Source of the DNA: Escherichia coli
Lineage (GTDB): Bacteria > Pseudomonadota > Gammaproteobacteria > Enterobacterales > Enterobacteriaceae
Assembly (NCBI RefSeq): GCF_045037415.1
Contig: NZ_CP173438.1
Length of the DNA: 64,000 bases
Strand: one strand, 5' to 3'
Position numbers: made by a program. Of the stretch, positions 7,901 through 10,900 are shown piece by piece (position 1 is the stretch's first letter; every line of letters starts with the position of its first letter).

Positions 7901-10900
7901 GGATCATAAGGAAACAGCGAAGTGATCACCATCGCCTGCCGTTGTGGATCATAAACTGAAGGCGTAGCGGACTGCGGCGGAGAAATAAATGTTGAAAATG
8001 GCACGTTCAACCCGGTGGCAATTTTCCATAATGTCGCGACCGTCGGGCTGGATTCATTACGCTCAATCTGCCCTAACATCGCTTTAGAAACGCCCGTCGC
8101 TTCTGCCAGTCGCGAAAGACTCCAGCCGCGCTGCTGACGTAGTTGTTTAAGTGTGGTGGATAAAAAACGAGCGAGATTTTCCATGCGACTCCTCCGGCAA
8201 AACGGAAGTTTATCACTTGTGCGTTATAACGGACAAATGCTACGGTACCTGTACGTTATAACGCACGAGGTGACTATGCGTCTGTTTTCTATTCCTCCAC
8301 CCACGCTACTGGCGGGGTTTCTGGCGGTATTAATTGGCTACGCCAGTTCAGCGGCAATAATCTGGCAAGCAGCGATTGTCGCCGGAGCCACCACTGCACA
8401 AATCTCTGGCTGGATGACGGCGCTGGGGCTGGCAATGGGCGTCAGTACGCTGACTCTGACATTATGGTATCGCGTACCTGTTCTCACCGCATGGTCAACG
8501 CCTGGCGCGGCTTTGTTGGTCACCGGATTGCAGGAACTAACACTTAACGAAGCCATCGGCGTTTTTATTGTCACCAACGCGTTAATAGTCCTCTGCGGCA
8601 TAACGGGACTCTTTGCTCGTCTGATGCGCATTATTCCGCACTCGCTTGCGGCGGCAATGCTTGCCGGGATTTTATTACGTTTTGGTTTACAGGCGTTTGC
8701 CAGTCTGGATGGTCAATTTACGTTGTGTGGCAGTATGTTGCTGGCATGGCTGGCAGCCAAGGCCGTTGCGCCGCGCTATGCGGTAATTGCCGCGATGATT
8801 ATTGGGATCGTCATCGTTACCGCGCAAGGTGACGTTGTTACAACTGATATTGTCTTTAAACCCGTTCTCCCCACTTATATTACCCCTGATTTTTCGTTTG
8901 CTCACAGTCTGAGCGTTGCACTCCCCCTTTTTCTGGTGACGATGGCATCGCAAAACGCACCGGGTATCGCAGCAATGAAAGCAGCCGGGTATTCGGCTCC
9001 TGTTTCGCCGTTGATTGTGTTTACTGGATTGCTGGCACTGTTTTTTTCCCCTTTCGGCGTTTATTCCGTCGGTATTGCGGCAATCACCGCGGCTATTTGC
9101 CAAAGCCCGGAAGCGCATCCGGATAAAGATCAACGTTGGCTGGCCGCTGCCGTTGCCGGCATTTTTTATTTGATCGCAGGTCTGTTTGGTAGTGCCATTA
9201 CCGGGATGATGGCTGCCCTGCCCGTAAGTTGGATCCAGATGCTGGCAGGTCTTGCGCTGTTGAGTACCATTGGCGGCAGTTTGTATCAGGCGCTGCATAA
9301 TGAGCGTGAGCGCGACGCGGCGGTGGTGGCATTTCTGGTAACGGCAAGTGGATTGACGCTGTTCGGGATTGGTTCTGCGTTTTGGGGATTAATTGCCGGA
9401 GGCGTTTGTTACGTGGTGTTGAATTTAATCGCTAACAGAAACCGATAATAAAAAGCGCCATCTAACGATGGCGCGTCTGGAACTACTTTTTGTTAACGTC
9501 AAACATGGTGGCATCGGTCGCCATGTCATCAATAACTTGTTTAATATTTTCGAAAGCCATTGGCGTACTTTCGTTATTCAGGTCTTTACCTTCGCCCTGA
9601 CGAACGACTTTGATAACCGGTTTATTAGTCGCTGCATCAATCAGCTCACCTTCAAAATACAAGCGAGTATCCATGGTACGGTGGCCTGTAGCCATTTGCG
9701 TCCCCGCAACCACTAATGCAACAGGAACCACTTCATAGAATTGCAGCCCTTCTTTGCTGGTATCTACACCGGTAATGGCCCCACGGAAAATCAGACTACG
9801 CGGCCCAGCGGTGGTAACCAGTGGTTTACGCTGCGCTATCGCTTCTTTCATTTCGGTGTTGGTATAGTTCAAAATTTTATCCAGAACTTTCTGCCCTACC
9901 TGGGTAGAAGGTTTCGGTACCGGATAATAAGTGATTGGGTTCCAGACGATGCTGTCATATTTGCTTTGATCAAAACTCGGGTCTACCCAACGTAAAACAG
10001 GTTTACCTGTTGCCGAGGTTGTTTCTTTTAAATCAGAGTAATTGTTTAAAAAACCAGAATATTTATCTGGCTGGGTGATTTTAGAGGCACAACCAGACAG
10101 AGCCAACAAGCCGCATAAAGCTGCAACTTTCGCAAATGATGTGGTACGCATGAATAGTTTCCTGAGATGATTATATTACTTTTTAAGTTATAGCAAAAAG
10201 CGCCGCTTCGTGTTGTGGCAAAAAAAGTGTTGGTGAAAATAAATTTTTTAGCCCCTTTTCAGACGACATAGTCAATGCCGAAAAAGGGGCTAAGTCAATC
10301 ATCAGTAGTTAAATTTCAGTACGTTAAGCGGCTAAAAAACTTCGACTACTGTGATTAATTTCACATCCCTTCGATAAAAAATATGCTTACCGAAAAGAAG
10401 AACAGTAAACCATCTCAGCGTGGGGAATTTTCACGCGCTTTGTTCTTACCGGATCATTTTTTACGTGCCAGCATCGTGGCGAAACGCAGTTTAATACGAT
10501 TACCGTTGGCGTCGGTGCGGTGCAGCTCGCCGACGTCTTCATTGTATTTCACCATCTCCCAGCCTTCGTAATATCGACGTAATTCCCCCTCTTTGAAGGC
10601 AAACGGGAAGCCGACGGTACATGGATAATCAGCGGTATCCATCGCCGCCACAATCAGGTTGTAACCGCCAGGTTTAGCGCAACGTTGCATATTGGCAATC
10701 AGCCCTGGGATGGTTTTAGCCTCAAGGAACATCAGCACCACAGTCGAAAGAATAAAATCGTACTGTCCATCAAATGTGAGGTTATTCAGATCAACGACCC
10801 GGGTGTGTAAATTATCCAGATTTTCAATGGACTTAATGCGCTCGACGTTGGCGATACTCATGGCATTTTTATCCCATGCGTCAACATCATAACCATTGGC

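Follow-up and report, generated by a model that had tools for sequence, protein, structure and literature searches.

A vacant IS609 insertion site between ydcO and ydcL in a B2-like lineage of Escherichia coli

The interval between ydcO and ydcL in the 64-kb stretch of Escherichia coli DNA analysed here (the window) can be identified with high confidence as the unoccupied allele of a polymorphic insertion site of IS609, an element of the IS200/IS605 family, and in this lineage the site was most probably never occupied. An earlier note on the same DNA described the interval as an empty site where K-12 carries a copy of IS609. We agree with this description and extend it in three respects: the hairpin in the interval reads as the terminator of ydcL, the insertion point lies inside the stop codon of ydcO, and among complete E. 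coli genomes the empty allele is in the minority (38%). The presence/absence polymorphism itself is already known and ordinary.

The junction in the window and in K-12

Gene names follow the PGAP annotation of E. coli SK1144 (NZ_AP018784.2), a genome collinear with the window at 99.98% identity; the two differ in length by 87 bp, in frame, in the repeats of ydbA. The lineage of the window is B2-like, and the near-identical SK1144 is a DAEC strain. In this annotation ydcO, a BenE-family transporter gene, occupies 8237-9448 on the plus strand and stops with TAA at 9446-9448; the longest open reading frame for it is 8153-9448. The convergent ydcL (9483-10151, minus strand), present both in the ORF listing and in the annotation, encodes a DUF3313 lipoprotein of 222 aa with the same protein sequence as K-12 YdcL, and its stop is read as CTA at 9483-9485, i.e., TAG on the minus strand. 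The two stops are separated by 34 bp, as had been noted (9449-9482, no strand assigned, TAAAAAGCGCCATCTAACGATGGCGCGTCTGGAA, by direct reading of the sequence). The ORF listing of the window contains no reading frame between ydcO and ydcL, and there is no transposase in the gap, as the note had stated.

The presence of IS609 at this place in K-12 MG1655, as given in the earlier note, is confirmed by the RefSeq annotation: NC_000913.3 has 'insertion sequence:IS609' at 1503161-1504908 (1,748 bp), between ydcL (b1431) and ydcO (b1433). The element contains yncK, a tnpA pseudogene, and insQ (tnpB), the latter annotated as a putative RNA-guided DNA endonuclease. The K-12 copy is reported to be single, and inactive owing to a stop codon in yncK (PMC2891674), and no transposition of it was found in mutation-accumulation lines (PMC5009759).

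Deletion of IS609 from K-12 in silico gives a 120-bp stretch that differs from the window by a single SNP, and the insertion point, which is vacant in the window and has no strand, is thereby placed exactly between 9447 and 9448. Like the TTAT rule and the population frequencies presented below, this junction comes directly from the tools. Reading it from both sides gave 0 bases duplicated or lost in K-12 compared with the window, and no extra or missing junction bases were seen in K-12 or in other occupied genomes. The insertion point splits the ydcO stop codon between the second and the third base: the gene in the window keeps its own TAA, whereas in K-12 its end reads TAT-TGA. With IS609 in the stop codon, K-12 YdcO consequently ends ...DRNRY* with one extra Tyr; the C-termini are ...NLIANRNR* in the window and ...NLIADRNRY* in K-12.

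The statement that the window carries no insertion sequence anywhere, with ydbA intact and free of IS2 and IS30, was also considered. The gene is one uninterrupted reading frame in the window (30162-38678, minus strand, 2,838 aa), whereas in K-12 it is interrupted by IS2D and by IS30C. The general statement holds for the PGAP calls of SK1144, where no transposase is annotated across the corresponding 64 kb, and for the IS families searched. Within this scope, blastn of the window with IS609, IS2, IS30, IS5, IS200C and one IS3-family element gave no match, and neither did tblastn with the transposases of IS609, IS2, IS30, IS5 and IS200C (7 transposase-type proteins; the IS3-family element entered the blastn search only). 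The sole traces of mobile elements in the window are a C-terminal fragment of a Rac-type integrase at 52805-53047 and a DUF1627 fragment. Both sit beside ttcA, which is the location of the Rac prophage in K-12. There is also a similarity between the interior of insQ and positions 59188-59235 (49 bp, 82%, E = 5e-5); it is intergenic, has no adjoining IS features and gives no tblastn signal, and is treated as a chance match or an unrecognisable relic.

The hairpin in the spacer

The one perfect 8-bp hairpin previously noticed in the spacer is found, by sequence reading, at 9455-9474 as GCGCCATC-TAAC-GATGGCGC, with a loop of 4 nt. This 20-mer is single-copy in the 64-kb window even when 3 mismatches are allowed (the chance expectation is 0), which rules it out as a REP (repeated extragenic palindrome), and the hairpin pattern has only 3 exact matches across 100,044 species-representative genomes. 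At gathering thresholds no Rfam family is found at the site, and the matches elsewhere in the window are known sRNAs only. The hairpin folds at -16.7 kcal/mol on the minus strand (z = -3.6) and at -15.5 kcal/mol on the plus strand (z = -4.0); in both cases 0/200 shuffles fold as well.

According to the terminator scan, six of the eight stem pairs are GC and the stem has the tail TTTTTATTAT on the minus strand; the consensus pattern reports the hairpin on this strand only. The stem begins 8 nt past the ydcL stop. From the T-tract directly after the stem, the match confined to the minus strand and this short distance to the stop, we infer that the hairpin and the T-tract read as the intrinsic (Rho-independent) terminator of ydcL, at which transcription of the gene would end (9448-9474, minus strand; hairpin 9474-9455, then TTTTTAT at 9454-9448). 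Complete E. coli genomes retain the terminator junction, and this predicted terminator is the sole functional content of the 34-bp spacer.

The same hairpin may in addition serve ydcO, either as a bidirectional terminator or as a 3'-end element that the two genes share. Convergent gene pairs often have one hairpin in common, the stem is only 6 nt past the ydcO stop, and the plus-strand fold is equally good. We consider this possible but rather doubtful: the sequence after the stem on the plus strand, GTCTGGAAC, is no T-run, the scan calls the opposite strand alone, and in about 60% of E. coli the 1.75 kb of IS609 lie between ydcO and the hairpin while ydcO is still annotated as intact. Any part that the hairpin plays in ending ydcO transcripts would be hairpin-only, considering what follows the stem on that strand. 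The assignment of the hairpin to ydcL is the reading that we retain below.

States of the site in the species and its history

The census searched 5,426 complete E. coli genomes, 5,416 of which had a match for the junction query. The uninterrupted empty junction is present in 2,045/5,416 genomes, so that the empty allele (38%) is the minority state among them. The junction of the ydcL terminator with the left end of IS609 was found in 3,268 genomes and that of the right end with ydcO in 3,265, approximately 60% in either case, and about 90 genomes have a short insertion at the site. One of the latter, strain E28, was inspected; there IS200C lies within the terminator T-tract, only a few bases away from where IS609 inserts. 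O121 has IS609 at the site together with an IS3-family element in ydcL. The element as such is nearly universal in E. coli, with matches in 5,015 genomes and a median of 2 places per genome. The strain Esc29, whose ydcO-ydcL region is identical to that of the window, carries a tnpA-deleted IS609 copy between yhgE and hslO. At the site under study, tnpA is a pseudogene in all five sampled copies as well as in those of O121 and K-12; intact copies of tnpA occur elsewhere in E. coli, for example WP_000604943.1 of O157.

The flanks of the site suggest that the empty state is probably ancestral for the lineage of the window, and we consider it likely that the site has never been occupied there. Trees were built by neighbour-joining with 200 bootstraps and with no recombination model from 3.3 kb on each side of the site in 13 genomes (6 occupied and 7 empty), which gave 6,353 ungapped columns and 209 informative sites. 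The split between all occupied alleles together with O157:H7, on one side, and the other empty alleles including the window, on the other, is recovered in 100% of the 200 bootstraps, and the group of the window with MY504 also has 100% bootstrap. The empty O157:H7 allele falls with the occupied ones, either inside their group or as its sister: monophyly of the occupied alleles has 38% bootstrap, versus 61% for A16 with O157. When the ydcL-side tree is rooted with a cryptic Escherichia clade, the empty alleles take the basal positions.

This root comes from a scan for the terminator pattern in 100,044 species-representative genomes. Among the 3 matches one was useful, Escherichia sp. MOD1-EC7003, and it is the only outgroup recovered; the scan did not yield E. 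albertii, E. fergusonii or E. marmotae. Among YdcL homologues clustered at 90%, all Escherichia sequences fell into a single cluster. Citrobacter koseri and C. amalonaticus were tried as outgroups and rejected; in both, a pair of additional genes (EamA, AraC) separates ydcL from the BenE gene, and as the junction is absent there, Citrobacter cannot polarise the state of the site.

MOD1-EC7003 and its relatives in the cryptic clade have an IS609-like scar of 46 bp at the same TTAT, consisting of a left-end arm, a TTCA loop and a right-end arm fused together, from which it follows that the site has been occupied outside E. coli proper. This clade has lost ydcO and most of sutR. The left-end part of the scar differs from E. 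coli IS609 at about 5/24 positions, against 5.5% divergence of the flanks; although these numbers are small, this is consistent with a related element having inserted there separately. No scar of this type is found in complete E. coli genomes (0 at >=80% coverage).

A different history would be that the site was once occupied in the lineage of the window as well, and that IS609 later left it through precise excision by TnpA, the 34-bp spacer being restored with no scar. Seamless excision is established for IS608 and ISDra2, and an intact tnpA elsewhere in E. coli, such as that of O157, could act in trans. The scar of the cryptic clade at the same TTAT argues for an old occupancy, and the clustering of the empty O157:H7 allele with occupied alleles points in the same direction. 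Elements of the IS200/IS605 family leave seamlessly (PMC10055086), so that the sequence alone has no power to separate a never-occupied site from an excised one. We nonetheless believe that precise excision is unlikely in this lineage. With the flank haplotypes of the window split from all occupied alleles at 100% bootstrap and the empty alleles basal in the rooted tree, ancestral occupancy would need at least 3-4 independent losses; furthermore, tnpA is dead in every sampled copy at the site, and the divergence of the scar is better suited to the separate insertion mentioned above. The preferred reading remains that of a site probably never occupied in the lineage of the window.

Target tetranucleotide, candidate guide match and relation to known systems

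Five further IS609 copies at unrelated loci were fetched: one next to yedK, one between yeaR and yeaQ, one in a TetR/AcrR gene by ytfB in each of two strains, and one in a DUF3251 gene. With the K-12 copy included, TTAT stands directly 5' of the left end CCGGTGCGCC in 6/6 independent sites, and the right end closes ...GGATGTCAA in 6/6 independent copies. The subterminal hairpins at both ends are similar in all 6 copies; as read from copies in other genomes, the left one is CCCC(A/G)TCC-TTCA-GGGCGGGG and the right one CCACGTCC-TTCA-GGGCGTGG. The copies in other genomes are annotated with an IS200/IS605 tnpA and with InsQ/TnpB, and they have no terminal inverted repeats. The TTAT rule, the lack of target duplication and the lack of terminal inverted repeats are the signature of the IS200/IS605 family.

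In the window this tetranucleotide, with the left end joining 3' of it, is at 9448-9451 on the minus strand and makes up the last bases of the terminator T-tract (9451-9448). TTAT occurs 345 times on the minus strand of the window; it is thus required, yet cannot by itself account for the selection of this site. The plus strand of the window has negative GC skew throughout, so that the minus strand, with TTAT, is the G-rich one; this indicates that the strand bearing TTAT and the top strand of IS609 are the lagging-strand template. The K-12 site lies at 1.50 Mb on the clockwise replichore. The lagging-strand-template orientation is reportedly the one expected for the IS200/IS605 family, according to the work of Ton-Hoang et al. 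in Cell in 2010.

In K-12 and in some 60% of the complete genomes of E. coli, IS609 has inserted 3' of the TTAT that closes the ydcL terminator T-tract, and neither target duplication nor inverted repeats are present, as would be expected for single-strand 'peel-and-paste' transposition with a Y1 (HUH) TnpA. The insertion turned the ydcO stop TAA into TAT-TGA, adding one Tyr to YdcO, and put 1.75 kb between ydcO and the hairpin. In the B2-like lineage of the window, the element most probably never arrived at the site.

The 20 nt next to TTAT (9428-9447, minus strand, TATCGGTTTCTGTTAGCGAT) match the right-end flank of K-12 IS609 at 19/20 positions, with the mismatch at position 14. If the guide RNA and the motif of IS609 are assumed by analogy (PMC8612924, PMC10055086), these 20 nt would be what an InsQ/TnpB guide RNA from the K-12 copy carries, and they can be regarded as a candidate TnpB target. 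TnpB-guide RNA homing nucleases of IS605-family elements cleave vacant ('donor-joint') sites (PMC8612924, PMC10055086; also 10.1101/2023.11.20.567912); our literature search on InsQ activity returned nothing specific to E. coli IS609.

One could go further and see in the TTAT that closes the ydcL terminator a hot spot, recurrent or homing, rather than the place of a one-off insertion. Such a proposal would be based on the scar of the cryptic clade at the same nucleotide, on IS200C in the same T-tract and on the vacant alleles that combine TTAT with a near-perfect match to the putative guide. We regard it as quite improbable. If it were true, the 38%/60% split would owe its shape to RNA-guided cutting of vacant sites, to copying by recombination once DNA has been transferred and, now and then, to precise excision, and not to simple vertical inheritance of one insertion. 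Finally, IS copies are sometimes lost from draft assemblies, but the idea that a repeat copy was collapsed out of this one can be safely dismissed, since 2,045 complete genomes, O157:H7 EDL933, 83972 and Seattle 1946 among them, have the identical uninterrupted junction.

Taken alone, the vacant allele of the window carries little weight; the presence or absence of this annotated K-12 insertion sequence is a textbook polymorphism, and more than 2,000 complete genomes have the vacant allele. Its uses are modest. The site is a clean lineage marker, and the window groups among B2-type genomes. The comparison defines the IS609 target (TTAT) to the nucleotide and traces the extra C-terminal Tyr of K-12 YdcO to the element. 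The occupied and vacant alleles form a natural pair for the study of possible InsQ/TnpB homing in E. coli itself.

As to known systems, IS609 resembles IS608 of Helicobacter pylori and ISDra2 of Deinococcus radiodurans, which also insert 3' of a short specific sequence with no target duplication, have subterminal hairpins at both ends and place their top strand on the lagging-strand template. The right end of IS608 finishes TCAA, and so does that of IS609. The tetranucleotide is different (TTAC is the target of IS608, TTGAT that of ISDra2 and TTAT that of IS609). The tnpA and tnpB genes of IS609 are divergent, unlike those of IS608, which are in tandem; in IS605 they are divergent as well. The predicted ydcL terminator shares with canonical Rho-independent terminators of E. 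coli the 8-bp GC-rich stem, the 4-nt loop, the T5-A-T directly after it and the location 8 nt after the stop, and nothing in it is unusual. The vacant sites cleaved by TnpB (Karvelis 2021, PMC8612924; Meers 2023, PMC10055086) have a motif-plus-target layout, whose candidate counterpart in the window would be TTAT with 20 nt; the window encodes no TnpB. The allele of the window differs from the K-12 IS609 locus in being vacant, without the element and its TnpA or TnpB, whereas the chromosomal site is the same to the nucleotide and the flanks agree throughout the 120 bp compared, save for the single SNP.

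IS609 and other elements at and away from the ydcO/ydcL site

The ydcO-ydcL region of E. coli Esc29 is identical to that of the window, with its empty IS609 site, yet this genome carries an IS609 copy between yhgE and hslO (L011:1450-2960), in which the transposase gene tnpA is internally deleted and the TnpB gene insQ is intact. Therefore, TnpB can still be encoded in lineages with the empty site. Concerning insQ in the window, a 49-bp match (82%, E = 5e-5) to the interior of this gene is present at 59188-59235, in the smrA/MFS intergenic region; no further IS features are found around it, and the match is probably due to chance.

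A short insertion at the ydcO/ydcL site occurs in about 90 complete genomes. E. coli E28 contains IS200C (NZ_CM143889.1, L015:700-1415) within the same T-tract of the predicted ydcL terminator, a few bases away from the IS609 insertion point. In a cryptic Escherichia clade, a 46-bp scar composed of fused IS609-like left and right ends is located at the same TTAT 3' of the ydcL terminator (Escherichia sp. MOD1-EC7003, NZ_PTRE01000219.1, L014:239-288; likewise in the comparison loci L017-L023). This clade (MOD1-EC7003) has also lost ydcO and most of sutR, which is why its ydcL-rlhA distance is only about 300 bp.

Intact and altered genes, and small RNAs

The ydbA gene is intact (2,838 aa; 30162-38678, minus strand) and includes tandem repeats of about 294 bp. 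In strain SK1144, which is otherwise nearly identical, ydbA is longer by 87 bp (29 aa); therefore, either the repeat number is variable or the repeats were assembled differently. According to the SK1144 annotation, gapC (20563-21564), a pseudogene in K-12, is an intact type I GAPDH gene; the same annotation describes dgcM (about 57260-58490) and a DHA2-family MFS efflux gene (about 59320-60780) as frameshifted. The Rfam matches in the window are the expected small RNAs, i.e., sok of the hokB locus (19059-19210), RydC (19770-19833), MicC (48723-48843), FnrS (55803-55920) and McaS (62787-62882).

Segments missing relative to K-12 or other E. coli, and the Rac prophage position

Considering the differences from K-12, trg is truncated (18499-18942) and lacks its N-terminal part, and about 1.3 kb of K-12 sequence is absent between trg and hokB. 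In the azoR-pdxI interval (29036-29146), ydbD-ynbABCD, which make up about 7.2 kb in K-12, are missing. At about 39000-39600, the window lacks the entire paa cluster along with tynA and feaB, a region that covers about 18 kb in K-12; all that is left, adjoining ydbL, are incomplete paaY and feaR-like fragments. The hicB gene is partial (4877-5113) and hicA is absent in the lineage of the window; hicAB is retained in the comparison E. coli O121 and O157.

The segment 50850-53050, common to 1,049 genomes (ST131 among them), contains a frameshifted metal ABC permease gene, a DUF1627 fragment and a C-terminal integrase remnant of 81 aa with 93% identity to IntR. This segment of about 2 kb occupies the uspF-ttcA interval, where K-12 carries the 23-kb Rac prophage.
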